Shown in pieces: positions 1,651-34,665 of a stretch of DNA of 64,000 bases; within the stretch, counting starts at the first letter, position 1; each line of letters opens with the position of its first letter. Under the pieces are notes generated by a model, which did no database searches, was not told the DNA's origin, and saw only the letters and a list, made by a program, of their open reading frames with translations. This DNA comes from Escherichia coli (lineage in GTDB: Bacteria; Pseudomonadota; Gammaproteobacteria; Enterobacterales; Enterobacteriaceae). The stretch lies in assembly GCF_050320075.1 (NCBI RefSeq), contig NZ_CP190021.1, one strand, 5' to 3'. The position numbers were made by a program, and so were the translations under genes.

Positions 1651-1985
1651 CTGGCTGGATGTTCTCAGTACACGCTCGTAAGCGGCCCTGACGGCCCGCT
1701 AACGCGGAGATACGCCCCGACTTCGGGTAAACCCTCGTCGGGACCACTCCGACCGCGCACAGAAACTCTCTCATGGCTGAAAGCGGGTATAGCTTAGCAG
1801 GGCTGGGGATGGGTAAGGTGAAATCTATCAATCAGTACCGGCTGACGCCGGGCTTCGGCGGTTTTACTCCGGTATCACATGTAACCACAGCGTGCCGCCT
1901 TCCATGCCGCTGGCGCGGCATATCCTGGTGACGATATCTGAATCGTTATATACTGTGTATATACGTAGTAATGACGAGGTGATAA

Positions 1986-2255
1986 ATGGCACAGGTTAAT
2001 ATGAGTTTAAGAATCGACGCTGAACTGAAGGATGCTTTTATGGCCGCTGCAAAAAGCATGGACCGTAATGGCTCTCAGTTAATCCGGGATTTTATGCGCC
2101 AGACCGTTGAACGGCAGCATAATACCTGGTTCCGTGACCAGGTTGCGGCAGGACGTCAGCAACTCGAGCACGGCGATGTGCTTCCCCATGACATGGTCGA
2201 ATCCTCTGCTGCAGCATGGCGGGATGAAATGAGCAGGAAGGTTGCCGGTAAATGA
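1986..2255 (+). CDS. yacA: RelB/DinJ-like antitoxin (YacA)
   Basis: 89-aa ORF, stop overlaps start of the next gene (ATGATGG); small acidic C-terminus typical of type II antitoxins. Confidence 0.7.
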   Translation: MAQVNMSLRIDAELKDAFMAAAKSMDRNGSQLIRDFMRQTVERQHNTWFRDQVAAGRQQLEHGDVLPHDMVESSAAAWRDEMSRKVAGK

Positions 2256-2533
2256 TGGAGATATTCTGGACCATGCTGGCCAGCCAGGACAGGAAGCGCA
2301 TTCGTGAGTACATTGCGGAGCAGAACCTGATGGCTGCCATTGAACTGGACGAACGGATTGGTTATTCAGCCAGCAGCCTGGCCGGGCAGCCGTATAAAGG
2401 CCGCAACGGTCGTGTGGAAGGTACCCGGGAACTGGTTATTCACCCGCATTTTGTTCTGGTTTATGAGGTCGACAGCCAGTGGGGAAAAGTGTATATCCTG
2501 CGCGTGTTGCATACTGCACAGAAGTGGCCATAG
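2252..2533 (+). CDS. yacB: RelE/ParE-superfamily toxin (YacB)
   Basis: 93-aa ORF translationally coupled to yacA; size and position typical of RelE/ParE toxin. Confidence 0.7.
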   Translation: MMEIFWTMLASQDRKRIREYIAEQNLMAAIELDERIGYSASSLAGQPYKGRNGRVEGTRELVIHPHFVLVYEVDSQWGKVYILRVLHTAQKWP

Positions 2534-2572
2534 AGGGGCTGTCCGGATATAAGGAAAGGAGATGCAATAACC

Positions 2573-3421
2573 ATGAATAATGATGAGCTGGCCACCAGAC
2601 GTGCGCAGGCGATTGCCGAAGACAGGTGTTTCTCGAAAGGACGTTTGCGCGATGAATTCAGAATGAAACCAGCCCCCGGTGCTGAGCCGGTTAAGTGGTA
2701 TAAAAACACTTATGGTGGCAGGTTCGCTGTATACCGAATTGCAGACTGTGTTCCGATGCGTGAGAAACGCCCTCTGACGAGTAAACAACAGCTGGCTGGC
2801 CAGCGACTTTCCGTTTTATCCAGACTTAACAGCACCAGTGGCCGGATGGCACGGCAGGCATATGACTGGCTGAGTCTGGCACCGCTCTTTCTGGATACTG
2901 AAACGACAGGACTGGATAATACCGCGGAAGCCCTGGAAATCGGCCTGACCGATGCGGCCGGTCAGGTGGTATTTGAAACCAGGCTGAAGCCCACGGTCGC
3001 CATCGGGGCGCAGGCCGCCGCTGTGCATGGTATCAGCGAGCAGGCTCTCTGCGGCGCACCATCATGGACAGATGTGGCGCGGCAACTGCGTCATGCAATC
3101 GGGGACCGACCAGTAATTATCTTTAATGCCCGGTTCGACATCCGCATTCTGAAACAGACTGCTGCCGCACATAGCGATCCGGCTGACTGGCTGGAAGAAC
3201 TGACGGTATATTGTGCGATGGAGCTGGCTGCAGGATATTATGGGGCCACCAACCGCTATGGCACGATTTCACTGGCCTGTGCTGCCAGCCAGGCCGGACT
3301 GACCTGGGAAGGGCAGGCACACTCAGCGATCGCCGACGCACGGATGACGGCAGGGGTGGTAAACGCTATTGCTGCATATCATCTGGAACTGCTGCAGGAA
3401 CAGGCACGGCTGAAAATCTGA
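2573..3421 (+). CDS. yacC: DnaQ-like DEDDh 3'-5' exonuclease domain protein (YacC)
   Basis: 282-aa ORF with Exo I motif (LFLDTETTGLD) and a C-terminal H-x4-D motif (HSAIAD). Confidence 0.7.
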   Translation: MNNDELATRRAQAIAEDRCFSKGRLRDEFRMKPAPGAEPVKWYKNTYGGRFAVYRIADCVPMREKRPLTSKQQLAGQRLSVLSRLNSTSGRMARQAYDWLSLAPLFLDTETTGLDNTAEALEIGLTDAAGQVVFETRLKPTVAIGAQAAAVHGISEQALCGAPSWTDVARQLRHAIGDRPVIIFNARFDIRILKQTAAAHSDPADWLEELTVYCAMELAAGYYGATNRYGTISLACAASQAGLTWEGQAHSAIADARMTAGVVNAIAAYHLELLQEQARLKI

Positions 3422-4960: not shown

Positions 4961-5780
4961 GGCACTGTTGCAAATAGTCGGTGGTGATAAACTTATCATC
5001 CCCTTTTGCTGATGGAGCTGCACATGAACCCATTCAAAGGCCGGCATTTTCAGCGTGACATCATTCTGTGGGCCGTACGCTGGTACTGCAAATACGGCAT
5101 CAGTTACCGTGAGCTGCAGGAGATGCTGGCTGAACGCGGAGTGAATGTCGATCACTCCACGATTTACCGCTGGGTTCAGCGTTATGCGCCTGAAATGGAA
5201 AAACGGCTGCGCTGGTACTGGCGTAACCCTTCCGATCTTTGCCCGTGGCACATGGATGAAACCTACGTGAAGGTCAATGGCCGCTGGGCGTATCTGTACC
5301 GGGCCGTCGACAGCCGGGGCCGCACTGTCGATTTTTATCTCTCCTCCCGTCGTAACAGCAAAGCTGCATACCGGTTTCTGGGTAAAATCCTCAACAACGT
5401 GAAGAAGTGGCAGATCCCGCGATTCATCAACACGGATAAAGCGCCCGCCTATGGTCGCGCGCTTGCTCTGCTCAAACGCGAAGGCCGGTGCCCGTCTGAC
5501 GTTGAACACCGACAGATTAAGTACCGGAACAACGTGATTGAATGCGATCATGGCAAACTGAAACGGATAATCGACGCCACGCTGGGATTTAAATCCATGA
5601 AGACGGCTTACGCCACCATCAAAGGTATTGAGGTGATGCGTGCACTACGCAAAGGCCAGGCCTCAGCATTTTATTATGGTGATCCCCTGGGCGAAATGCG
5701 CCTGGTAAGCAGAGTTTTTGAAATGTAAGGCCTTTGAATAAGACAAAAGGCTGCCTCATCGCTAACTTTGCAACAGTGCC
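4961..5780 (+). mobile_element. IS26 copy 1 (820 bp)
   Basis: GGCACTGTTGCAAA terminal repeats at both ends; internal tnpA. Confidence 0.95.
5006..5728 (+). CDS. tnpA: IS26 transposase Tnp26
   Basis: 240-aa ORF MNPFKGRHFQRDIILWAVRWYCKYGISYREL... Confidence 0.95.
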   Translation: MLMELHMNPFKGRHFQRDIILWAVRWYCKYGISYRELQEMLAERGVNVDHSTIYRWVQRYAPEMEKRLRWYWRNPSDLCPWHMDETYVKVNGRWAYLYRAVDSRGRTVDFYLSSRRNSKAAYRFLGKILNNVKKWQIPRFINTDKAPAYGRALALLKREGRCPSDVEHRQIKYRNNVIECDHGKLKRIIDATLGFKSMKTAYATIKGIEVMRALRKGQASAFYYGDPLGEMRLVSRVFEM

Positions 5781-6806: not shown

Positions 6807-7626
6807 GGCACTGTTGCAAATAGTCGGTGGTGATAAACTTATCATCCCCTTTTGCTGATGGAGCTGCACATGAACCCATTCAAAGGCCGGCATTTTCAGC
6901 GTGACATCATTCTGTGGGCCGTACGCTGGTACTGCAAATACGGCATCAGTTACCGTGAGCTGCAGGAGATGCTGGCTGAACGCGGAGTGAATGTCGATCA
7001 CTCCACGATTTACCGCTGGGTTCAGCGTTATGCGCCTGAAATGGAAAAACGGCTGCGCTGGTACTGGCGTAACCCTTCCGATCTTTGCCCGTGGCACATG
7101 GATGAAACCTACGTGAAGGTCAATGGCCGCTGGGCGTATCTGTACCGGGCCGTCGACAGCCGGGGCCGCACTGTCGATTTTTATCTCTCCTCCCGTCGTA
7201 ACAGCAAAGCTGCATACCGGTTTCTGGGTAAAATCCTCAACAACGTGAAGAAGTGGCAGATCCCGCGATTCATCAACACGGATAAAGCGCCCGCCTATGG
7301 TCGCGCGCTTGCTCTGCTCAAACGCGAAGGCCGGTGCCCGTCTGACGTTGAACACCGACAGATTAAGTACCGGAACAACGTGATTGAATGCGATCATGGC
7401 AAACTGAAACGGATAATCGGCGCCACGCTGGGATTTAAATCCATGAAGACGGCTTACGCCACCATCAAAGGTATTGAGGTGATGCGTGCACTACGCAAAG
7501 GCCAGGCCTCAGCATTTTATTATGGTGATCCCCTGGGCGAAATGCGCCTGGTAAGCAGAGTTTTTGAAATGTAAGGCCTTTGAATAAGACAAAAGGCTGC
7601 CTCATCGCTAACTTTGCAACAGTGCC
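6807..7626 (+). mobile_element. IS26 copy 2
   Basis: Terminal repeats identified; same orientation as copy 1. Confidence 0.95.
6852..7574 (+). CDS. tnpA: IS26 transposase
   Basis: 240-aa ORF nearly identical to copy 1 (one difference, D vs G near the C-terminus). Confidence 0.95.
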   Translation: MLMELHMNPFKGRHFQRDIILWAVRWYCKYGISYRELQEMLAERGVNVDHSTIYRWVQRYAPEMEKRLRWYWRNPSDLCPWHMDETYVKVNGRWAYLYRAVDSRGRTVDFYLSSRRNSKAAYRFLGKILNNVKKWQIPRFINTDKAPAYGRALALLKREGRCPSDVEHRQIKYRNNVIECDHGKLKRIIGATLGFKSMKTAYATIKGIEVMRALRKGQASAFYYGDPLGEMRLVSRVFEM

Positions 7627-11297: not shown

Positions 11298-12117
11298 GGC
11301 ACTGTTGCAAAGTTAGCGATGAGGCAGCCTTTTGTCTTATTCAAAGGCCTTACATTTCAAAAACTCTGCTTACCAGGCGCATTTCGCCCAGGGGATCACC
11401 ATAATAAAATGCTGAGGCCTGGCCTTTGCGTAGTGCACGCATCACCTCAATACCTTTGATGGTGGCGTAAGCCGTCTTCATGGATTTAAATCCCAGCGTG
11501 GCGCCGATTATCCGTTTCAGTTTGCCATGATCGCATTCAATCACGTTGTTCCGGTACTTAATCTGTCGGTGTTCAACGTCAGACGGGCACCGGCCTTCGC
11601 GTTTGAGCAGAGCAAGCGCGCGACCATAGGCGGGCGCTTTATCCGTGTTGATGAATCGCGGGATCTGCCACTTCTTCACGTTGTTGAGGATTTTACCCAG
11701 AAACCGGTATGCAGCTTTGCTGTTACGACGGGAGGAGAGATAAAAATCGACAGTGCGGCCCCGGCTGTCGACGGCCCGGTACAGATACGCCCAGCGGCCA
11801 TTGACCTTCACGTAGGTTTCATCCATGTGCCACGGGCAAAGATCGGAAGGGTTACGCCAGTACCAGCGCAGCCGTTTTTCCATTTCAGGCGCATAACGCT
11901 GAACCCAGCGGTAAATCGTGGAGTGATCGACATTCACTCCGCGTTCAGCCAGCATCTCCTGCAGCTCACGGTAACTGATGCCGTATTTGCAGTACCAGCG
12001 TACGGCCCACAGAATGATGTCACGCTGAAAATGCCGGCCTTTGAATGGGTTCATGTGCAGCTCCATCAGCAAAAGGGGATGATAAGTTTATCACCACCGA
12101 CTATTTGCAACAGTGCC
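11298..12117 (-). mobile_element. IS26 copy 3 (inverted relative to copies 1 and 2)
   Basis: Terminal repeats at 11298 and 12117; tnpA on minus strand. Confidence 0.95.
11350..12072 (-). CDS. tnpA: IS26 transposase
   Basis: 240-aa ORF identical to copy 2. Confidence 0.95.
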   Translation of the reverse strand: MLMELHMNPFKGRHFQRDIILWAVRWYCKYGISYRELQEMLAERGVNVDHSTIYRWVQRYAPEMEKRLRWYWRNPSDLCPWHMDETYVKVNGRWAYLYRAVDSRGRTVDFYLSSRRNSKAAYRFLGKILNNVKKWQIPRFINTDKAPAYGRALALLKREGRCPSDVEHRQIKYRNNVIECDHGKLKRIIGATLGFKSMKTAYATIKGIEVMRALRKGQASAFYYGDPLGEMRLVSRVFEM

Positions 12118-13375: not shown

Positions 13376-13789
13376 ATGTTTTTTATTGAGAATGAAGGTC
13401 AGGCTGTCGCCGGAACGGATTACTGGCAGTCTGTACAGGCGCAGGCCGGATATGTCTACCTCAGCTGGAATGCCGGCGCAGCCAGGCTGCTTGTCCCGGA
13501 TGCGGCAAAACATTTACTCAGGGAGATGCGGGGGGCTGAGTACGTCATCATCAGTAAGGGAGCACTGCATGGCCGCGATGCGCTGGAACTGGTATTTGAA
13601 GACGGCAGCGATGCGCCGTTTGTGATCCACATGCTGAGTGAGCAGTGCGATCGCCTGCTCCCCGAAAACAACCAGGGAGGGGGTTTTGTTGTCACCGTCT
13701 GGACGCGTGGAGGTAACCAGCTCCGTTATCCGGGAAAGTACCGTGTTGTGGAAAACCTGCCCGACGTTTCCCCGTGGAGTGAACACTGA
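13376..13789 (+). CDS. Hypothetical protein translationally coupled to the downstream recombinase
   Basis: ATG at 13376 with AGGAG RBS (ORF track starts earlier at 13337); stop TGA overlaps TGATATG start of the recombinase. Confidence 0.6.
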   Translation: MFFIENEGQAVAGTDYWQSVQAQAGYVYLSWNAGAARLLVPDAAKHLLREMRGAEYVIISKGALHGRDALELVFEDGSDAPFVIHMLSEQCDRLLPENNQGGGFVVTVWTRGGNQLRYPGKYRVVENLPDVSPWSEH

Positions 13790-13790
13790 T

Positions 13791-14576
13791 ATGCAGCACC
13801 TGCCGGCACCGATCCACCATGCCCGGGATGCTGCTCAGCTTCCTGTTGCCATCGATTATCCGGCAGCGCTGGCACTCCGCCAGATGTCGATGGTTCATGA
13901 TGAACTGCCAAAATACCTGCTGGCCCCTGAAGTGAGCGCCCTGCTCCATTACGTGCCGGATCTGCGCCGCAAAATGCTGCTGGCCACACTGTGGAACACC
14001 GGTGCGCGCATTAATGAAGCACTGGCGCTGACGCGGGGGGATTTTTCGCTTGCGCCTCCGTATCCGTTTGTGCAGTTGGCCACTCTGAAGCAGCGGACCG
14101 AAAAAGCCGCCAGGACGGCAGGAAGAATGCCCGCCGGTCAGCAGACTCACCGGCTGGTTCCGCTCTCTGACGCCTGGTACGTCAGCCAGCTGCAGACGAT
14201 GGTGGCCACACTGAAAATCCCCATGGAACGGCGTAATAAACGAACAGGCAGGACAGAGAAAGCGCGGATCTGGGAAGTGACGGACAGAACGGTCAGGACC
14301 TGGATTGGGGAGGCGGTTGCCGCCGCTGCCGCTGATGGAGTGACGTTCTCTGTCCCGGTCACGCCACATACGTTCCGCCATTCCTATGCGATGCACATGC
14401 TGTATGCCGGTATACCGCTGAAGGTCCTGCAGAGTCTGATGGGGCATAAGTCCATCAGCTCAACGGAGGTCTACACGAAGGTCTTTGCGCTGGATGTCGC
14501 GGCGCGTCATCGTGTGCAGTTCGCCATGCCGGAAGCCGATGCGGTAGCGCTGATAAAACAACTTGAGAGGCGTTAA
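13791..14576 (+). CDS. Tyrosine site-specific recombinase (XerD/ResD-like, probable multimer resolvase)
   Basis: C-terminal HTFRHSYAMHMLYAG...LMGHKSISSTEVYTKV motifs (catalytic R-H-R-Y region); probable start MQHLPAP at 13791 within track ORF 13638-14576. Confidence 0.8.
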   Translation: MQHLPAPIHHARDAAQLPVAIDYPAALALRQMSMVHDELPKYLLAPEVSALLHYVPDLRRKMLLATLWNTGARINEALALTRGDFSLAPPYPFVQLATLKQRTEKAARTAGRMPAGQQTHRLVPLSDAWYVSQLQTMVATLKIPMERRNKRTGRTEKARIWEVTDRTVRTWIGEAVAAAAADGVTFSVPVTPHTFRHSYAMHMLYAGIPLKVLQSLMGHKSISSTEVYTKVFALDVAARHRVQFAMPEADAVALIKQLERR

Positions 14577-23620: not shown

Positions 23621-24125
23621 CTTCGGCTCCCGGCTGCCTGGCGGCATCCGGTCGTCAGGCCCGACTCCGACAGGCAGCTGCTGGCGCACCCGCCAGTCTC
23701 CGCCGAACCCGCTGGCGCGGTTTCGGGCTGCCGCTACGGTCCGATGCGTGAAAACCCGGCTTGCAGCGACCGTTCCGGTCGCGCCGCCCCTGTCGCGCCG
23801 TGACCTGCGCTCCCTGCACACCTGACGGTGTGTGAGGAAACTGCGCCTGATGGCGCAGCAGTCTTCCCTCCTGCCACCACCCCTGCGGCCTGTTTCCCGC
23901 TGTGGACTTTCCGGGGGGCAGACGTAACCCCCTCCCGTTCCATCTGTCCAGGGTGAGATGCACCGGCCACAAAATTTTTAGCCATGAACCCGGCTAAAAA
24001 TTTTGCGTCCGCCCCCGGACAGCTGTCCCGTGAGGCGGTAAACGGGCCCCCATCGGAAAGGTCCACTGCGGGGAGAAACCCCTGTGAAGTGGACGGCAGG
24101 AGGAGCTTTCGCTCCTCTGAAGGGG
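23621..24125. repeat. Leading-region repeat family B, copy 1 (~505 bp), candidate ssDNA promoter upstream of ssb
   Basis: Highly similar to 29964-30465 and partly to 33013-33345; contains a 14-bp perfect hairpin CAAAATTTTTAGCC-N8-GGCTAAAAATTTTG. Confidence 0.65.
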
Positions 24126-29281: not shown

Positions 29282-29782
29282 ATGTCTGTTGTTGCACCTG
29301 CTGTATACGTTGGAACCTGGCACAAATACAACTGTGGAAGCATCGCCGGACGCTGGTTTGACCTGACCACGTTTGATGATGAGCGCGACTTTTTCGCCGC
29401 CTGCCGTGCTCTTCACCAGGATGAAGCCGATCCTGAACTGATGTTTCAGGATTATGAGGGATTCCCGGGGAATATGGCCTCTGAATGCCATATCAACTGG
29501 GCCTGGGTTGAAGGCTTCCGCCTGGCACGGGATGAAGGCTGCGAAGAGGCTTATCGTCTCTGGGTGGAGGATACCGGTGAGACGGATTTTGACACCTTCC
29601 GCGATGCCTGGTGGGGCGAGGCTGACAGTGAGGAGGCTTTTGCGGTTGAGTTCGCCAGTGATACCGGCCTGCTGGCTGACGTGCCGGAGACGGTGGCGCT
29701 CTATTTTGACTATGAGGCGTATGCGCGGGATTTATTCCTGGACTCCTTCACCTTTATTGACGGTCATGTGTTCCGTCGGTGA
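29282..29782 (+). CDS. ardA: Anti-restriction protein ArdA (type I R-M inhibitor)
   Basis: 166-aa acidic protein [38 protein letters not shown]...; the track ORF 28892-29782 extends upstream through the repeat. Confidence 0.95.
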
Positions 29783-29963
29783 TTTACTCCCCCGCTCCGG
29801 CGGGGGTATGGCCTGCCAGGCCGCCGGAAAACCCTGGCAGGCTTACGCCTGCCTGAAATGCAGGAGGGCCGCGCCTGCGGCGCTGCCCTTCCTGCCCGTC
29901 ATGGTGTGAGGCATTTTTCTGTTATGTCGTTTCTGTTGTTCTGATTTCCGGAGGCGGGGACAC

Positions 29964-30465
29964 CTTCGGCTCCCGGCTGCCTGGCGGCATCCGGTCGTCA
30001 GGCCCGACTCCGACAGGCAGCTGCTGGCGCACCCGCCAGTCTCCGCCGAACCCGCTGGCGCGGTTTCGGGCTGCCGCTACGGTCCGATGTCTGAAAAACC
30101 AGGCTTGCAGCGACCGTTCCGGTCGCGCCGCCCCTGTCGCGCCGGAAACGGCGCTCCCTGCACACCTGACGGTGTGTAAGGCCACTGCGCCTGATGGCGC
30201 AGTCAACCCTTCCGCCGCCACCCCTGCGGCCTGTTTCCCGCTGTGGACTTTCCGGGGGCTGGAGTAACCACATCCCGTTTCAGCAGTCCAGGGGAAGATA
30301 TACCGTCCACAAAATTTTTAGCCATAAACCCGGCAAAAAATTTTGCGTCCGCCCCCGGACAGCTGCCCCGTGACGTGGTGACGGACGCCCCATCGGAAAG
30401 GTCCACTGCGGGGAGAAACCCCGAAGAAGTGGACGGCAGAAGGGGCTTTCGCCCCTCCGGGGAGC
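29964..30465. repeat. Leading-region repeat family B, copy 2
   Basis: Aligned by eye to copy 1 over ~500 bp. Confidence 0.65.
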
Positions 30466-30510
30466 AACCGGTCGGCCCGGCGACCTGATTCAGCAGAAGG
30501 AGACGTTTTC

Positions 30511-30945
30511 ATGACAGTCAGCAGCACGATTTCCGTTTTTTGCCGCGACGGGGTGTTCCGTACCGTTTACTGCCACCTGCACGGGGAGCCGACCTGGAAC
30601 GGTCGCATCCTGCATACCCACTATGCCACCGGTCAGCAGGCCGAAGCCCTGGTTGAACACGGTGATATCCGTTGCCTCGGTCCCCGTTGCGACAAACCCG
30701 CCGGGCATACGCTTCAGAACCCGGTGGACGGTGTGACGGCTTATTACGGACGTGACAGTGGTTTCCGGATGGACAGTGAGGCGCGTGAGTACCGTTCTTT
30801 CAGGGAGGCTATTGCCACTGAAAGCACTGAAGAGGTGCGCTTCCATTATGTGTTCATCGACGGCTACTGGAAGGTGATGTACCGCACGCCGGAAGGCTGG
30901 AAGATGAAAGCGCTCGCGCTGGCACTGCGTCGCTGTCCGAAATGA
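30511..30945 (+). CDS. Hypothetical protein
   Basis: 144-aa ORF with GAAGGAG RBS directly after repeat B2. Confidence 0.6.
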   Translation: MTVSSTISVFCRDGVFRTVYCHLHGEPTWNGRILHTHYATGQQAEALVEHGDIRCLGPRCDKPAGHTLQNPVDGVTAYYGRDSGFRMDSEAREYRSFREAIATESTEEVRFHYVFIDGYWKVMYRTPEGWKMKALALALRRCPK

Positions 30946-31038
30946 AAAAAAGGCAGGGCGATAAACCCTGCCTCTCTCCGCCGGCGCTTCCCCGCCAGGA
31001 AGTCCGGCATCTCAATCACTATCTATGGAGATTATGCC

Positions 31039-31305
31039 ATGAGACCATCAATTATCTTCGCAACCGCCGAGTATGTAAAGCGTCTGCGTGAAGAGTGCCT
31101 GCGGGAGAATAAACCCCTGCACCGCCATACCCGCTTCAGACGTCAGGAGCTGGCACAGGATGAGATTAACCCGGACGTCCTGGCGATGAGCGGCCATATC
31201 GCCAGACGCTGCAGTGAGCAGAAGCGGGTGCGTATCCCCGCTATGAAAGTCAGCGAATGGGGCCACCTGCTCCGCGCGCTTGAAATTGAGCGGGTCTGCC
31301 ACTGA
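31039..31305 (+). CDS. Hypothetical small basic protein
   Basis: 88-aa ORF upstream of the Rpn-like gene. Confidence 0.45.
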   Translation: MRPSIIFATAEYVKRLREECLRENKPLHRHTRFRRQELAQDEINPDVLAMSGHIARRCSEQKRVRIPAMKVSEWGHLLRALEIERVCH

Positions 31306-31369
31306 TTAACCCTTGCCGTCTGCCTGTGCAGGCGGCAGGATACGTTCAGACATCTCACCAGGAGGAACC

Positions 31370-32308
31370 GTGAGTCAGAAGAAAACCACCACGACGCCCA
31401 CGCCGCATGATGCCGCGTTCCGGTCGTTCCTGGCGAATCCCGACGTCGCCAGAGATTTTCTGGAACTGCATCTTCCGGCGGAGTACCGGCAGTTGTGCGA
31501 CCTGTCCACGCTGAAGCTGGAACCCGCCACCTTTGTTGAGCCGGACCTGCATCAGTACGCCAGCGATATCCTCTGGAGTGTGAAAACCACCGGGGGTGAA
31601 GATGGCTATGTTTATACGCTCATCGAGCACCAGAGCACCGAAAATCTGTACATGCCTTTCCGCATGTTACGTTACAGTGTGGCGGCGATGCAGAGACATC
31701 TGGAGCAGCACAAAACGTTGCCACTGGTGATTCCTGTACTGTTCTATCATGGTGAGCGCAGCCCGTACCCGTACAGCATGAACTGGCTGGACTGTTTTGA
31801 GAATCCGGCACTTGCGGCTAAAATATACACAAAGCCGTTTCCGCTGGTTGATATCACTGTCGTTGATGACAATGAAATCATGAACCATCGCCGGATGGCC
31901 GCACTGACGCTGCTGATGAAGCATATCCGCCATCGTGACATGATGGAGCTGCTGGACAAACTCCCGCAGGTCATGGTGGAAATTTCAGACGAGCAGGTGC
32001 GTGTTCTGATTCATTACATCGTTAACGCAGGGGACTCTGTATCACCGGAATTTATGCGGGCGCTGGCTGAGCGTCTGCCGCAGCATGAGGATAAACTGAT
32101 GACTATCGCAGAACGTCTTGAGCAAAAAGGTCGCCAGGAGGGCAGGATGGAAGGACGCATGGAAGGACGCATGGAAGGACGCATGGAAGGAGCGCTTGAA
32201 AAAGCCCTGGCTATTGCGTGCCAGCTTCAGAAAATGGGGATGACGCCGGAGCAGATTAAGCAGGCTACCGGACTTTCCGATGACGAACTGAAGAAAATCA
32301 CTCACTGA
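31370..32308 (+). CDS. Rpn (YhgA-like) family PD-(D/E)xK nuclease/recombination-promoting protein
   Basis: GTG at 31370 with GGAGG RBS; N-terminal TPHDAAFRSFL, core YVYTLIEHQSTEN...FRMLRYSVAAMQRHL, recognised from memory as the YhgA/Rpn family. Confidence 0.75.
   Translation: MSQKKTTTTPTPHDAAFRSFLANPDVARDFLELHLPAEYRQLCDLSTLKLEPATFVEPDLHQYASDILWSVKTTGGEDGYVYTLIEHQSTENLYMPFRMLRYSVAAMQRHLEQHKTLPLVIPVLFYHGERSPYPYSMNWLDCFENPALAAKIYTKPFPLVDITVVDDNEIMNHRRMAALTLLMKHIRHRDMMELLDKLPQVMVEISDEQVRVLIHYIVNAGDSVSPEFMRALAERLPQHEDKLMTIAERLEQKGRQEGRMEGRMEGRMEGRMEGALEKALAIACQLQKMGMTPEQIKQATGLSDDELKKITH
32141..32188. repeat. In-frame 12-bp tandem repeat (GGACGCATGGAA x ~4) encoding (EGRM)n inside the Rpn-like gene
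   Basis: Read directly from sequence. Confidence 0.9.
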
Positions 32309-32314
32309 GTAAAC

Positions 32315-32345
32315 ATCACAGCCCGGCAAAATGCCGGGCTTTTTT
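32315..32345 (+). terminator. Rho-independent terminator after the Rpn-like gene
   Basis: AGCCCGGCA-AAA-TGCCGGGCT stem followed by TTTTTT. Confidence 0.7.
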
Positions 32346-32369
32346 GTCAGCAGGAGCAGAGCAAATAGC

Positions 32370-32528
32370 ATGACGATTGCAGAACGTCTTATTCAAAAAG
32401 GCGCACTTGAAGTGGCGCGGGAAATAGCCTGCCGGCTGCGGGATATGGGCTGGACGCCGGAACGGATTCAGGAGGCAACCGGACTTTCCGGTGAAGAACT
32501 GAAAAAGCTGTTTCCTGATGAGCAGTAG
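32370..32528 (+). CDS. Small protein duplicating the C-terminal module of the Rpn-like protein (RpnS-like candidate)
   Basis: 52-aa ORF MTIAERLIQKGALEVAREIACRLRDMGWTPERIQEATGLSGEELKKLF..., parallel to the Rpn tail MTIAERLEQKG...ALAIACQLQKMGMTPEQIKQATGLSDDELKK. Confidence 0.55.
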   Translation: MTIAERLIQKGALEVAREIACRLRDMGWTPERIQEATGLSGEELKKLFPDEQ

Positions 32529-32558
32529 CCTGGCATTCAGCCAGGCTGTGAATCACGC

Positions 32559-32810
32559 TCACACATCCTCTGCCGTTTCCCCCAGTTCATTTTCCAGTCG
32601 CCTGATGATATCTGCCTTACGCATCCCCTGCATGTGAGGCAGCAGGTCACGGACTGAAAGTGCCTGGGTGGTCCTCCAGACGGTGACGTCCACCTGTTCC
32701 GCATTTTCCCAGGCGTGCCATGTTCTCTGCGTCACGCCAAATTCTCTGGCCGCTTTTTCGCGTGACCAGAGCATGCTTTTTCGCCAGATTCGCAGTTCCC
32801 AGCCGGTCAT
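32559..32810 (-). CDS. Small HTH DNA-binding protein (Cro/Xre-like)
   Basis: 83-aa ORF with EFGVTQRTWHAWENA HTH-like segment; twin palindromes in its 5' region. Confidence 0.6.
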   Translation of the reverse strand: MTGWELRIWRKSMLWSREKAAREFGVTQRTWHAWENAEQVDVTVWRTTQALSVRDLLPHMQGMRKADIIRRLENELGETAEDV

Positions 32811-32824
32811 AAAACACCTTTGAA

Positions 32825-32912
32825 AAAGTGAAAAAACTTCACTTTATTTTATCATCACAATTGCCAAATCAGCGCGATAAATAAGTGTAAAAAAGTGAAG
32901 AAATTTCACTTT
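32825..32912. promoter_or_regulatory. Two palindromic operator candidates AAAGTGAA-N5-TTCACTTT (32825-32845 and 32892-32912)
   Basis: Identical 8-bp arms in both copies, 67 bp apart, read from sequence. Confidence 0.6.
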
Positions 32913-33012
32913 TTTTGCTTGTAAATGTCGTGCGGTTTTCTCTGTTTTCACCTGTGCGGGAGTGGTGTGCCAGTGACCACCACATGCCATTGTTGTGCCG
33001 TCGTTTTTCTTC

Positions 33013-33345
33013 AGTCGCGCCGTATGCGGCGCTCCCTGCACACCTTACGGTGTGTAAGGCCACTGCGCCTGATGGCGCAGCTGTCTCTGCCTGTCTGCCG
33101 CCGCACTGCGGCCTGTTCTCCGCAGACGGACTTTCCGGGGGTACATACATGACCACATCCCGTTTCAGTCGTCCAGGGGGGAGATGTACCAGCCACAAAA
33201 CTTTTTGCCGCAGGCGTCAAAAACTTTTGCGTCTGCCCCCGGACAACTGCCCCGTGACGTGGTGAGCGTCCCCCGTCGGAAAGGTCCACTGCGGGGAAAT
33301 CCCCGAAGACCCGGACGGCAGAAGGAGCTTCGCTCCTCCGGGAAA
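33013..33345. repeat. Leading-region repeat family B, copy 3 (partial, 3' two-thirds)
   Basis: Aligns to 23792-24125 of copy 1, including a degenerate version of the hairpin. Confidence 0.6.
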
Positions 33346-33389
33346 TGACCTGGCTGTCCCGGCAGTCGTGACGATGAGGAGACAATGTG

Positions 33390-34238
33390 ATGAATCAGAC
33401 TTTACCCACTGCTGACCTGAATACTGCCGGCACGACAGATGTTATTCCGTCTGTGGCTATCGACCGCATCATCGCGCAGCGTAACGAAGGTATTGCACTG
33501 TTCATGCAGGCGATGGAATGCCTGGCGACAGCGCGCAAGATTCTGCTCGATGCGTCAGGTGATATTTTTCTTTACGGGTTTGAAGACTGCGTGACTGATT
33601 CCGTTCGTCGCATAGATAAACCGGAAGAAGCGAAAAGGAATATCACCCGTCTTGCCGACCGGAAAATCTGGGACCGCCTGATGACAGATACGGGCATGTA
33701 CACCTTCATGAGTTCATGCCAGCGTGATGAGTGGAACAGCCAGCTGATGAGCGACACCTGTCCTGAAATCACCCTGGACAATGTACTGGCAACATTCCGC
33801 CATCTGAATGCCTGCAAGATGCAGACATTTGAACAGGGACTGATTGATGTCTACCGGAAATTGTCATGGGATTACAGAACCAATAATCCCTGCCGTCTGG
33901 GTAAGAAAATCATTATTGAAAACCTGCTGTACCGCTGGAGTAACGGGCGTGTGACGCTGGACTGCAGCGGACGGGAGGCACTGGATGACCTGGTACGTCC
34001 GTTTTATCTGCTGGAGGGGCGCAACGTTCCTGACTTCAGGAACAGTATCGGGGCGCAGTATGGTGAATTTCTCGGGAACGGCGACAATGTCGGTAAGCTG
34101 TTAGAAGGGGAATATTTTACGGTGCGTGGCTACCAGAAAGGGACCGTACACATTGTCTTTAAGCGTTCTGACCTTGTTGAAAAACTGAATGATATTATTG
34201 CACGGCATTATCCAGGTGCATTGCCGCCACGAGTCTGA
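33390..34238 (+). CDS. Hypothetical protein, last leading-region gene before oriT
   Basis: ATG at 33390 with GAGGAG RBS (track ORF 33387-34238 starts at a GTG one codon earlier). Confidence 0.6.
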   Translation: MNQTLPTADLNTAGTTDVIPSVAIDRIIAQRNEGIALFMQAMECLATARKILLDASGDIFLYGFEDCVTDSVRRIDKPEEAKRNITRLADRKIWDRLMTDTGMYTFMSSCQRDEWNSQLMSDTCPEITLDNVLATFRHLNACKMQTFEQGLIDVYRKLSWDYRTNNPCRLGKKIIIENLLYRWSNGRVTLDCSGREALDDLVRPFYLLEGRNVPDFRNSIGAQYGEFLGNGDNVGKLLEGEYFTVRGYQKGTVHIVFKRSDLVEKLNDIIARHYPGALPPRV

Positions 34239-34243
34239 TTAAA

Positions 34244-34282
34244 CAGAAAAGCCCTGGTATTTATGCCGGGGCTTTTTTTTCT
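34244..34282 (+). terminator. Rho-independent terminator
   Basis: AAGCCCTGG-loop-CCGGGGCTT stem followed by a T8 run. Confidence 0.7.
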
Positions 34283-34323
34283 GTAATCATCATAATCTCA
34301 GAACACGATGTGACATTGTCACA

Positions 34324-34665
34324 TCAATTGTTGTTCATATCGATGCCATCTTTCCTGCCTGAATCTGTCTTTTTAGGTGCTGTTTTAGAGGAAGAACGGC
34401 GGGATGGTTTTTTCGATTCTGCTTCCCGAATAATGTCACGAAGTGCCTTCTCTCCTACTTCATACCCTGCATTTTTGAGCGTGTCACGAACATCTGCCAG
34501 TGTATAACCCTTTGTCCTTACCAGGACAATAATGTCATCACGAATGGCATCAAGAAAATCACGCAATGTTTTCCGTTGAGCGGTGAGATCTGGCAATTCC
34601 GATAAAGCAGCTTTTGCCAGCTGGATGTCATCATCTGAGTAAAATTTTTTAGAAGCCATTGGCAC
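34324..34665 (-). CDS. Hypothetical protein with basic C-terminal tail, divergent from nikA next to oriT
   Basis: 113-aa ORF ending ...KKPSRRSSSKTAPKKTDSGRK... Confidence 0.5.
   Translation of the reverse strand: MPMASKKFYSDDDIQLAKAALSELPDLTAQRKTLRDFLDAIRDDIIVLVRTKGYTLADVRDTLKNAGYEVGEKALRDIIREAESKKPSRRSSSKTAPKKTDSGRKDGIDMNNN

Follow-up and report, generated by a model that had tools for sequence, protein, structure and literature searches.

The rpnP2 toxin-antitoxin locus of an IncI-complex plasmid and the free-standing copy of its antitoxin tail

The window analysed here, a stretch of 64,000 nucleotides of Escherichia coli DNA (contig NZ_CP190021.1), contains a nuclease gene whose C-terminal module is encoded a second time by a small gene of its own, and this arrangement raises the question of which system the locus belongs to and what the second copy of the tail does. 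The region between positions 31370 and 32528 corresponds, with high confidence, to the rpnP2 locus of the IncI-complex conjugative plasmids, a gene-within-a-gene toxin-antitoxin system acting against phages. Both the system and its plasmid locus were characterised in 2023 and do not represent a new kind of system; the rpnP2 identity of the locus, its anatomy, repeat variation, fold and purifying selection were obtained directly in the present analysis. New are the observations that the two copies of the tail vary independently in the number of a four-residue repeat, that the published non-toxic constructs do without the free-standing copy, that the gene row is preceded by a putative single-strand promoter element, and that the HTH gene shows no link to rpn. 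The features of the locus and its surroundings are as follows (window coordinates):

30136-30421, minus strand: ssi/Frpo-like (class 1) putative single-strand promoter element, heading the ygcA-ygdA-rpn row and predicted to act on the transferred (minus) strand
30511-30945, plus strand: ygcA, 144 aa, opening the row, named 'PndC' in many records
31039-31305, plus strand: ygdA/YdfB, 88 aa, located mostly within the published RpnP2 'native promoter' fragment
31370-32308, plus strand: rpnP2, long product RpnL, 312 aa, GTG start, AGGAGG at 31360-31365
32087-32308, plus strand: RpnS, predicted intragenic antitoxin, 69 aa, Shine-Dalgarno sequence (SD) GAGGA at 32087-32091, 7-nt spacer, in-frame ATG at 32099
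32132-32191, plus strand: five four-residue units (RQEG followed by 4 x RMEG) in helix 1 of RpnS and RpnL, RpnS residues 12-31
32320-32346, plus strand: terminator-like hairpin (9 bp, 7 G-C pairs) with T run, between rpn and rpnSs
32352-32528, plus strand: rpnSs, 52 aa, F-type tail that lacks repeat units, AGGAG at 32352-32356, 13 nt from the ATG at 32370
32559-32810, minus strand: ygeA, XRE-type HTH protein, 83 aa, Pfam HTH_31, convergent with rpnSs
32827-32843 and 32894-32910: two perfect palindromes AGTGAA-N5-TTCACT in the ygeA promoter region
33014-33304, minus strand: second ssi/Frpo-like element, heading ygfB (DUF4942) and bounding the module on its oriT side

Identity of the nuclease gene

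A reading of the sequence alone had proposed an Rpn-like gene at 31370-32308, to be checked by a profile search, and this gene was confirmed together with all the other features that it had described. The 312-aa RpnL protein gave significant matches to the Rpn/YhgA profiles: residues 11-207 match Pfam PF04754 (Transposase_31/YhgA-like) at 2.4e-78, and TIGR01784 (Rpn family) scores 180 bits, where the cutoff is 52.1. Residues 1 to approximately 187 comprise a PD-(D/E)XK nuclease domain, which is followed by a variable linker and the tail. Residues D14, D66, E86 and Q88 are intact, and it is these same residues that were altered in the published RpnP2 active-site mutant (gBlock AO730). No model of PADLOC-DB 2023 matched Rpn, RpnS or RpnSs, a null result that is uninformative because this library predates the system. 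A second 312-aa open reading frame of the window (13638-14576), considered as another rpn gene, was found to encode a tyrosine recombinase.

The assignment to rpnP2 is based on the oligonucleotide and gBlock sequences listed in Dataset S2 of the preprint of the original study (PMC10327210). The published synthetic "RpnP2" fragment, gBlock AO591, is identical to window positions 31070-31468 at 396 of 399 bases, and since it starts at 31070 the published 'native promoter' fragment corresponds to 31070-31369. The 300 bp located 5' of the GTG codon at 31370 are identical to those of the published RpnP2, as are the GTG start and its SD, and the arm of the published deletion primer AO739 is found without mismatch at 31330. 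The remaining RpnP2 oligonucleotides match two sister loci, L030 and L017, exactly, as do the 349 nt of gBlock AO714 that are wild type.

In the founding study (Zhong et al. 2023 PNAS, PMC10400941), RpnP2-L was toxic, RpnP2-S neutralised RpnP2-L, and the pair protected against T-even phages; these three properties were established on the allele of an E. coli plasmid from ECOR13 (PMC10400941; PMC10327210). The window allele resembles RpnP2 of ECOR13 in its nuclease domain (approximately 99% identical as far as residue 187, and sharing its catalytic residues), in having an internal SD and ATG at the homologous codon, in the same hairpin after the gene, and in a free-standing tail gene located downstream. 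The ECOR13 allele departs from that of the window in codons 3-8 and in its tail. RpnL is a mosaic whose C-terminal type differs from residue ~188 onward, with an identity of 45-50%: the window encodes an R-type tail, RQEG(RMEG)4, versus an I-type tail, (IQQG)4VQQG, in ECOR13. The downstream gene differs as well, having zero repeat units in the window versus four in L030, the sister locus that matches the wild-type part of AO714. By analogy, toxicity, neutralisation and phage protection would extend to the tail allele of the window, but the strength of neutralisation and the range of phages may differ, since residues 188-312 are just 45-50% identical to the ECOR13-type protein.

The locus can equally be compared with the chromosomal rpnA-E genes of E. 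coli, with which it shares family membership (TIGR01784), the gene-within-a-gene layout, a four-residue repeat that varies 8-20 residues past the internal methionine, the three-helix tail (the RpnSs model resembles RpnA-S, 7TH0), and a paralogous small gene downstream, as for RpnE-Ss (YpaA) and RpnC-Ss. Unlike the chromosomal genes, rpnP2 is plasmid-borne and located in a conjugative leading region, and some of its relatives carry up to two consecutive free-standing tails; RpnL is no equivalog of RpnA or PRK09956 (319 and 335 bits, NCBIfam). The idea that the gene encodes a transposase, which is suggested by the record names 'putative transposase' and 'ISNCY family transposase', deserves practically no credence, because these equivalog scores fall far under the 583 cutoffs, no inverted repeats surround the gene (the only flanking repeats, those of the two ssi elements, are in direct orientation at a distance of 2.88 kb), its position is fixed in the IncI backbone, and neither ends nor target duplications were seen for rpn genes by Zhong et al. 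(PMC10400941).

The internal start and the two tail copies

The internal ATG at 32099, preceded by GAGGA with a 7-nt spacing and opening a frame of 69 codons, is present exactly as the sequence-only reading had described it. The ATG and GAGGA core are kept in two allele classes despite differing flanking codons (HEDKL-M and HEDSI-M), and the published RpnP2-L* mutation (gBlock AO714) alters precisely the SD and ATG homologous to 32087-32091 and 32099. Separate translation of the small protein was demonstrated by tagging for RpnA-E and RpnP2 (PMC10400941), and the sequence context suggests that translation would likewise start from the ATG at 32099, and from that at 32370. The pN/pS ratio of the RpnS part is 0.19. 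The statement in the earlier reading that such internally translated C-terminal proteins act as antitoxins of anti-phage Rpn nucleases agrees with what has been published for the rpnP2 locus itself (Zhong et al. 2023).

The free-standing 52-aa frame at 32370-32528, which had been taken for a duplicate of the C-terminal module, is indeed one: its product and the 69-aa tail share the start MTIAERL and 49% identity (E 2e-16), with a sole gap of 20 residues falling exactly over the repeats. In all of approximately 110 related loci rpnSs begins at the homologous methionine and, together with the conservation of the internal ATG and GAGGA in two allele classes, this indicates that the features described are more than chance. 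RpnSs is a real, selected gene: its reading frame is intact in approximately 100 loci, its ATG and SD are conserved, its pN/pS ratio equals 0.295 (48 alleles), and the length of its repeat tract changes by whole 12-nt units, the exceptions being contig-end cuts, locus L108 with one in-frame internal deletion, and the natural plasmid L111, in which a blaCTX-M-55 insertion truncates rpnSs and leaves rpn intact. Newer PGAP records name the product 'RpnC/YadD family protein'. The AF2 model of RpnSs (pLDDT 79) displays helices at residues 3-25, 30-37 and 41-47, and its top Foldseek match in the PDB is RpnA-S (7TH0; TM 0.77/0.86, rmsd 1.0 Å), which was also found with a tail profile (E 5e-10). A single-sequence phmmer search of the PDB with RpnS returned mostly spurious helical-repeat matches, with 7th0 at E 0.04, and Pfam gave on repeat-bearing RpnSs a weak Yae1_N match on the GxxxG-like repeats that is not meaningful.

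Expression of rpnSs may be low, given the 13 nt that separate its SD from the ATG and the terminator-like hairpin located 5' of the gene, which is kept in 18 of 18 aligned loci. A promoter candidate at 32344-32371 (TTGTCA-16-TAGCAT) was rejected, its -10 hexamer overlapping the ATG and lacking conservation in relatives. Longer rpnSs annotations (65-93 aa, with starts inside or before the hairpin) were likewise discarded, because the rpn stop codon and the ATG of MTIAERL lie either 61 or 62 nt apart, so that the upstream frame is not conserved.

The 12-bp repeat of the small protein, which had been read as (EGRM)n, was recovered as the identical repeat in another register, RMEG; TRF reports an exact tandem repeat of ATGGAAGGACGC x3.8 at 32147-32191, 100% matching. 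The suspicion that its copy number varies proved correct when related plasmids were compared. Across 16 plasmids and 93 metagenome stretches, the units number 0-6 in RpnS and 0-6 in RpnSs, vary independently and occur in 30 combinations; among the 86 R-type loci, the repeat again comprises 0-6 units, and its number changes even among loci with identical flanking haplotypes. In the window the repeat starts at residue 12 of RpnS. The numbers in the two copies are unequal in 81 of these 86 loci, the window having five units versus zero, which corresponds to 20 residues in helix 1. Ignoring relatedness, the two numbers are weakly anticorrelated, and equal numbers are under-represented with P 0.01-0.03 when ancestry is ignored; avoidance of equal numbers was dropped as a firm result for these reasons. 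Variation of the four-residue repeat and free-standing downstream tail genes (RpnSs) had each been described by Zhong et al. (PMC10400941).

The tails of the related loci are arranged in several orders (I|R|F, I|R, I|F and R|F). One locus (L036) bears the signature of unequal crossing-over, having two free-standing tails and a chimeric 5' end, and a free-standing R gene combines a 5' end of F-like sequence with an R-like body. No full-length Rpn protein with an F-type tail was found among the 120 best of 321 homologues, all of which measure 52-89 aa.

Position in the leading region and neighbouring genes

The rpn gene row is located between ardA/psiB/ssb and oriT-nikAB, and all genes except ygeA lie on the strand that can be read from the transferred T-strand. 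The two ssi/Frpo-like elements (30136-30421 and 33014-33304) are direct repeats of one another, with a third copy near 23807, and as single-stranded DNA the first folds with -94 kcal/mol (z -9.0) and the second with a z of -7.3. A function of the first as a single-strand promoter would follow by analogy with the elements described in PMC12672017; an Rfam search of 29500-34500 gave no match at E values up to 0.1. Six operons of the IncI1 plasmid pESBL are transiently induced in transconjugants (NAR 2025, PMC12672017), and the leading-region position, the readable strand and the single-strand promoter element together suggest that the rpn row is probably expressed soon after its arrival in a new host. 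The locus resembles the leading-region anti-defence islands (Samuel et al. Nature 2024, PMC11541004; PMC12672017) in its region, in its T-strand-readable orientation and in the class-1 ssi-like hairpin elements that head the gene rows. Unlike in those islands, the cargo consists of a defence toxin-antitoxin pair and includes no known anti-defence protein, and the main texts of both studies make no mention of Rpn. The first gene of the row, ygcA, matched only PHROG families of unknown function.

The convergent HTH gene noticed in the sequence-only reading is present as ygeA, but its inclusion in the module did not hold up. Both palindromes at 32827-32910, which are probably operators, are confined to the promoter region of ygeA itself, and no perfect AGTGAA-N5-TTCACT occurs elsewhere in the 64 kb, hence none near rpn. 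Regulation of rpn or rpnSs by YgeA is therefore highly improbable: RpnP2 constructs without ygeA behave normally, and although the gene is annotated in all related plasmids and invariably lies next to the locus where the right flank is intact, the whole IncI backbone is syntenic in this manner, which makes the synteny uninformative. YgeA is a neighbour for which no link to rpn was found.

Possible roles of the free-standing tail

In the mechanism that we consider most likely, RpnL would be a PD-(D/E)XK DNA endonuclease that is toxic when alone, while ribosomes would additionally initiate at the internal ATG and produce RpnS, which would pair with the identical tail of RpnL via its long first helix and hold the nuclease in an inactive state, from which infection or another trigger would release it. 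Each 12-bp unit would add four residues to this first helix, and slippage could rapidly alter the repeat number and thereby re-tune the specificity of pairing. RpnSs would be a diverged, free-standing copy of the tail with the fold of RpnS, would have arisen through unequal crossing-over where the tail modules share a conserved start of ~30 nt, and would not be required to neutralise RpnL.

The sequence-only reading had seen in the free-standing frame an extra dose of antitoxin. That rpnSs acts in this way, as a second antitoxin in trans raising the antidote dose for the RpnL encoded in cis, is consistent with the common fold and family of RpnSs and RpnS, with the conserved start and SD of the gene, with the purifying selection that it experiences, and with the production in cells of its chromosomal analogue RpnE-Ss (YpaA; PMC10400941). 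Nevertheless, this role appears unlikely. The published RpnP2-LS constructs stop 101 bp past the rpn stop codon, inside codon ~13 of rpnSs, and are still non-toxic, which makes the free-standing gene dispensable as an antidote; the natural plasmid L111 retains rpn with a truncated rpnSs; RpnSs is merely 49% identical to the cis tail and its repeat number mostly does not match; and in RpnC a single added repeat abolishes neutralisation, according to published data.

Alternatively, recombination of tail modules by unequal crossing-over could be the source of rpnSs, which would then be chiefly a by-product and reservoir of this process, able to be fused back so as to swap tails, the protein itself having a small role. 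The mixed tail arrays and the chimeric R gene would fit such a history, as would the fusions and tandem duplications reported by Zhong et al. (PMC10400941). Against it stand the intact reading frames, the selection (pN/pS 0.30) and the conserved translation signals, along with the failure to find an RpnL-F fusion among the best 120 of 321 homologues, and we judge the probability of this explanation to be quite small.

A third explanation, to which we attribute only a slender chance, is that rpnSs acts as an orthogonal 'anti-Rpn' decoy that is made early from the leading region and neutralises the Rpn nucleases of a recipient or of rival IncI plasmids, in anti-defence or plasmid competition. 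Anti-defence genes and orphan antitoxins are enriched in leading regions, rpnSs is located behind an ssi element on the T-strand-readable strand, its repeat number shows no coupling to that of the cis tail and a weak anticorrelation with it, and the gene is dispensable for the cis toxin. On the other hand, the gene lies behind a terminator-like hairpin and has a poorly spaced SD, the anticorrelation ignores relatedness, and no full-length F-tailed Rpn that could be a matching target of the decoy occurs among those best 120 of 321 homologues.

The under-representation of equal repeat numbers, the anticorrelation of the two copies and the dispensability of the gene for neutralising RpnP2-L lead us to put forward, very tentatively and at a low probability, that rpnSs is an orthogonal module kept in a different register from the cis pair RpnL/RpnS and not its neighbour's spare antidote. 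If rpnSs is such an orthogonal module, its probable expression from the leading region at the time of entry could allow it to disarm the Rpn nucleases of recipients or competing IncI plasmids; another possibility is that it sets the threshold at which the defence is activated.

The arrangement had been thought unusual, an expectation that its frequency contradicts: rpn with a free-standing tail was found on approximately 2,040 PLSDB plasmids, and in 1,378 of 5,426 complete E. coli genomes, a quarter of them, and RpnSs genes were already described (Zhong et al.). The rpnP2 locus ranks with the most frequent defence loci of IncI-complex resistance plasmids, and it shows that a gene-within-a-gene toxin-antitoxin system is recognisable from raw sequence. 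With its leading-region location and the putative single-strand promoter element that precedes it, a toxic nuclease is probably one of the plasmid genes that a new host expresses first, a point that is discussed neither in the Rpn paper (PMC10400941) nor in the texts of PMC11541004 and PMC12672017. The free-standing copy is conserved, yet dispensable as an antidote, and the two tail copies with their fast and independent repeat changes constitute a natural experiment on the repeat-number rule. Should rpnSs act in either of the two ways just given, on foreign Rpn nucleases or on the activation threshold, the hypervariable repeat numbers would represent a specificity code in the conflict between plasmids, or between plasmid and host.

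Identity of the rpn locus with rpnP2

An Rpn nuclease gene with an internal start, a repeat tract, a free-standing copy of its tail and a convergent HTH gene had been described in the sequence-only reading, and all of these features are present:

31370-32308, + strand: rpn ORF of 312 aa, from GTG 31370 to the stop at 32308, with AGGAGG four bases before the GTG
32099, + strand: in-frame ATG, predicted internal start of RpnS, with GAGGA at 7-nt spacing; predicted product of 69 aa
32147-32191: ATGGAAGGACGC repeated 3.8 times with 100% matches (Tandem Repeats Finder), encoding one RQEG and then four RMEG units at residues 12-31 of the 69-aa product
32370-32528: free-standing tail gene rpnSs, 52 aa
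32559-32810, - strand: ygeA, 83 aa, HTH_31 domain, convergent with rpnSs

The proposed family was confirmed, the 312-aa rpn product matching the Pfam Transposase_31/YhgA-like profile at 2.4e-78 and scoring 180 bits (cutoff 52) with TIGR01784, the NCBIfam Rpn family model. The database label "transposase" was rejected: no terminal inverted repeats were found, the position in the backbone is fixed, and the equivalog scores are below cutoff.

Rpn genes are gene-within-gene toxin-antitoxin systems, in which full-length RpnL is a toxic endonuclease inhibited by RpnS, the C-terminal tail made from an internal start (Zhong et al., PNAS 2023, PMC10400941). The first helix, common to RpnL and RpnS, carries repeats of four residues in a number that differs from strain to strain, and RpnC neutralisation is lost with one extra repeat; free-standing tail genes (RpnSs, e.g. 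ypaA) are found downstream of some rpn genes, both chromosomal and plasmid-borne, and rpnP2, a plasmid gene of ECOR13, confers protection against T-even phages (PMC10400941).

The window was linked to rpnP2 through the oligonucleotide table of preprint PMC10327210 (supplement 3). The AO591 gBlock ("RpnP2, 300 bp upstream and 101 downstream") differs from window 31070-31468 at 3 of 399 positions, all within codons 3-8, and the 40-nt deletion arm AO739 matches exactly at 31330. The sister loci L030 and L017 contain exact matches to the other RpnP2 oligos and to gBlock AO714 over its 349-nt wild-type part. The four residues altered in the published RpnP2 active-site mutant (D14, D66, E86 and Q88) are all present in the window protein, and the published RpnP2-L* mutation substitutes GAGGAC...ATG at the homologue of the 32099 codon. 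Aligned with the ECOR13-type allele (carried by L030), the protein of the window shows about 99% identity through residue 187 and 45-50% from there to the C-terminus; the two have the same nuclease domain and a different type of linker and tail. Judged by these matches, the window locus is rpnP2. The core of the earlier interpretation, an Rpn toxin with an internally translated antitoxin, is correct and, being already published for this exact locus, is not new; its two further claims, an unusual arrangement and an extra antitoxin dose, fared less well.

Leading region and neighbouring genes

The plasmid gene order is ssb, parB-like, psiB, psiA, ardA, ygcA, ygdA, rpn, rpnSs, ygeA (opposite strand), a DUF4942 gene (ygfB), mobC, nikA and nikB, which places rpn in the IncI leading region, about 2.5 kb to the left of oriT. 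Three related ssi/Frpo-like elements (single-strand promoter elements) are located here:

23790-24090: third related copy, preceding ssb
30136-30421: direct repeat of about 290 nt, preceding ygcA-ygdA-rpn
33014-33304: direct repeat of about 290 nt, preceding the DUF4942 gene on the other flank of the module

In single-stranded form, the minus strand of either direct repeat folds far better than shuffled sequences (z -9.0 for 30136-30421 and -7.3 for 33014-33304). The three elements probably correspond to ssi1-3 of ColIb-P9/pESBL. On the IncI1 plasmid pESBL, six operons are headed either by one of three class-1 elements (ssi1-3) or by one of three other hairpins, and their expression rises by up to 500-fold in transconjugants (2025, PMC12672017). 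By its position, the 30136-30421 element heads ygcA-ygdA-rpn, from which we reasonably infer that rpn would be expressed early after transfer, putting a toxic nuclease among the first plasmid genes to be switched on. The published constructs place a conventional promoter within 300 bp 5' of the GTG (Zhong et al.).

Many records name the first gene of this row, ygcA (30511-30945, 144 aa), "post-segregation killing protein PndC"; it matches only PHROG families of unknown function, and no hok/pnd-type locus adjoins it. Four related loci (L006, L009, L111 and L112) carry an extra 390-nt ORF between ygdA and rpn (locus coordinates 585-974), named ccgAII or mislabelled CbiX, which overlaps the rpn start by 4 nt and takes the place of the sequence from which the published constructs drew their native promoter.

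The ygeA gene showed no link to rpn. Its promoter region contains two perfect AGTGAA-N5-TTCACT palindromes (32827-32843 and 32894-32910, 67 bp apart), with no further perfect copy elsewhere in the 64 kb, which points to autoregulation. Every other gene of this stretch can be transcribed from the transferred strand; ygeA alone has the opposite orientation and may therefore be a "late" regulator, active once the second strand has been made. Elsewhere in the window, AGTGAATGTCGATCACT, one mismatch from the palindrome pattern, occurs three times (5140-5156, 6986-7002 and 11922-11938), each time within an apparent repeated mobile-element end.

Far from being unusual, as had been suggested, the arrangement is common. 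In PLSDB the 2-kb module occurs on 2,040 plasmids of Escherichia, Salmonella, Shigella and Klebsiella, of which 1,903 are conjugative; it is also present in 1,378 of 5,426 complete E. coli genomes, where 1,469 of its 1,533 sites are plasmid-borne. The replicons are IncI-gamma/K1, IncK2/Z, IncI1/B/O and some IncF cointegrates, all with MOBP and MPF_I.

Tail types and repeat numbers

Related loci were compared in a set of 16 plasmid loci and 93 metagenome stretches, the latter retrieved with a pattern that joins the conserved intergenic sequence to the beginning of the free-standing gene. In the rpn tail and in the free-standing gene, the four-residue units lie at the equivalent site, between MTIAERLxQKG and ALE, and define the following tail types and combinations.

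Tail types, and their order from rpn tail to free-standing gene(s)
R: repeat units RQEG(RMEG)n
F: repeat units FDEG, FKEG, FKQG or FEKG
I: repeat units (IQQG)n VQQG
I2: variant of I
R then F: 86 loci
I then F: 7 loci
I2 then F: 4 loci
I then R: 3 loci (L028, L079, L101)
I2 then R: 1 locus (L060)
I then R then F: 1 locus (L036)

The suggested variation in copy number was borne out: in the R-then-F class, S (RpnS) and Ss (RpnSs) each have 0 to 6 units, in 30 distinct combinations, the window being (5, 0). Loci identical outside the repeats vary in unit number (e.g. Ss = 2 with S = 1, 3, 4 or 5), and repeat number thus shifts faster than point mutations build up. S and Ss are equal in 5 of the 86 R-then-F loci (L002-L110), compared with 12.2 expected under independence, and are negatively related (Spearman -0.43); after haplotype collapse, 4 are equal for 9.4 expected (P 0.027). 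Because all these statistics ignore shared ancestry, we regard the deficit as unexplained rather than established.

Locus L036 (metagenome contig OERV01000189.1, bases 1-800, reverse complement) has an I-type rpn tail and two free-standing tails, R-type with 2 units and then F-type with 0 units, with a hairpin-plus-SD unit repeated ahead of each. Its free-standing R gene is F-type at the 5' end and R-type in the remainder, a chimera that bears the mark of unequal crossing-over within the ~30 conserved nt at the start of the tail modules.

The free-standing tail gene

The 52-aa rpnSs product is 49% identical to the 69-aa rpn tail (E 2e-16), and the single 20-residue alignment gap coincides exactly with the repeats. 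A hairpin (32320-32340) with T run, AGGAG and the ATG are kept among related loci; the distance from the rpn stop to this ATG is 61 or 62 nt, which leaves the MTIAERL ATG as the sole conserved start. The ORF is full length and uninterrupted across about 110 loci, except for L108 (in-frame internal deletion), L111 (CP125015.1, pKFS-D24_1; locus 1861-3216), where a blaCTX-M-55 insertion cuts it after codon 8 and also removes ygeA, and a few contig-end cuts. Its pN/pS is 0.295 (48 alleles), versus 0.187 for the intragenic R tail. The AlphaFold2 model (helices 3-25, 30-37 and 41-47; pLDDT 79) has E. coli RpnA-S (7TH0) as top PDB match (TM 0.77/0.86, rmsd 1.0 A, 48% identity), and the Rpn tail profile also matched 7th0 (E 5e-10). 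By its conserved start, SD and hairpin, intact ORFs, pN/pS and predicted fold, rpnSs is a real gene. The best 120 of 321 RpnSs homologues are all 52-89 aa long, and none of these 120 is a full-length Rpn with an F-type tail.

Several side observations concern this module. IS421 lies beside or within it in L011 and in CP057400.1 (hit H1). A 7-bp inverted repeat without T run, GCCTGGC-ATTCA-GCCAGGC (32528-32546), lies between the convergent rpnSs and ygeA stops and may be a bidirectional terminator or RNA-stability element. A further match of the tail profile (E 1e-25) is to repeats inside the Legionella type IV secretion protein IcmE/DotG, via a motif like "GMTPEQIxxATGLSxxELK", which may be a common helical repeat motif or a low-complexity effect.

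That rpnSs supplies an extra antitoxin dose, as had been proposed, is doubtful. The published RpnP2-LS constructs stop 101 bp past the rpn stop, their reverse primers AO619 and AO738 encoding LIQKGFDE (rpnSs codons 7-14), and without rpnSs they are still non-toxic and protective (Zhong et al., PMC10400941). Furthermore, rpn is left intact in L111, and S and Ss repeat numbers are rarely equal. The gene is conserved yet dispensable for neutralisation, its repeat number runs independently of that of the cis tail, and the obvious role does not fit it.
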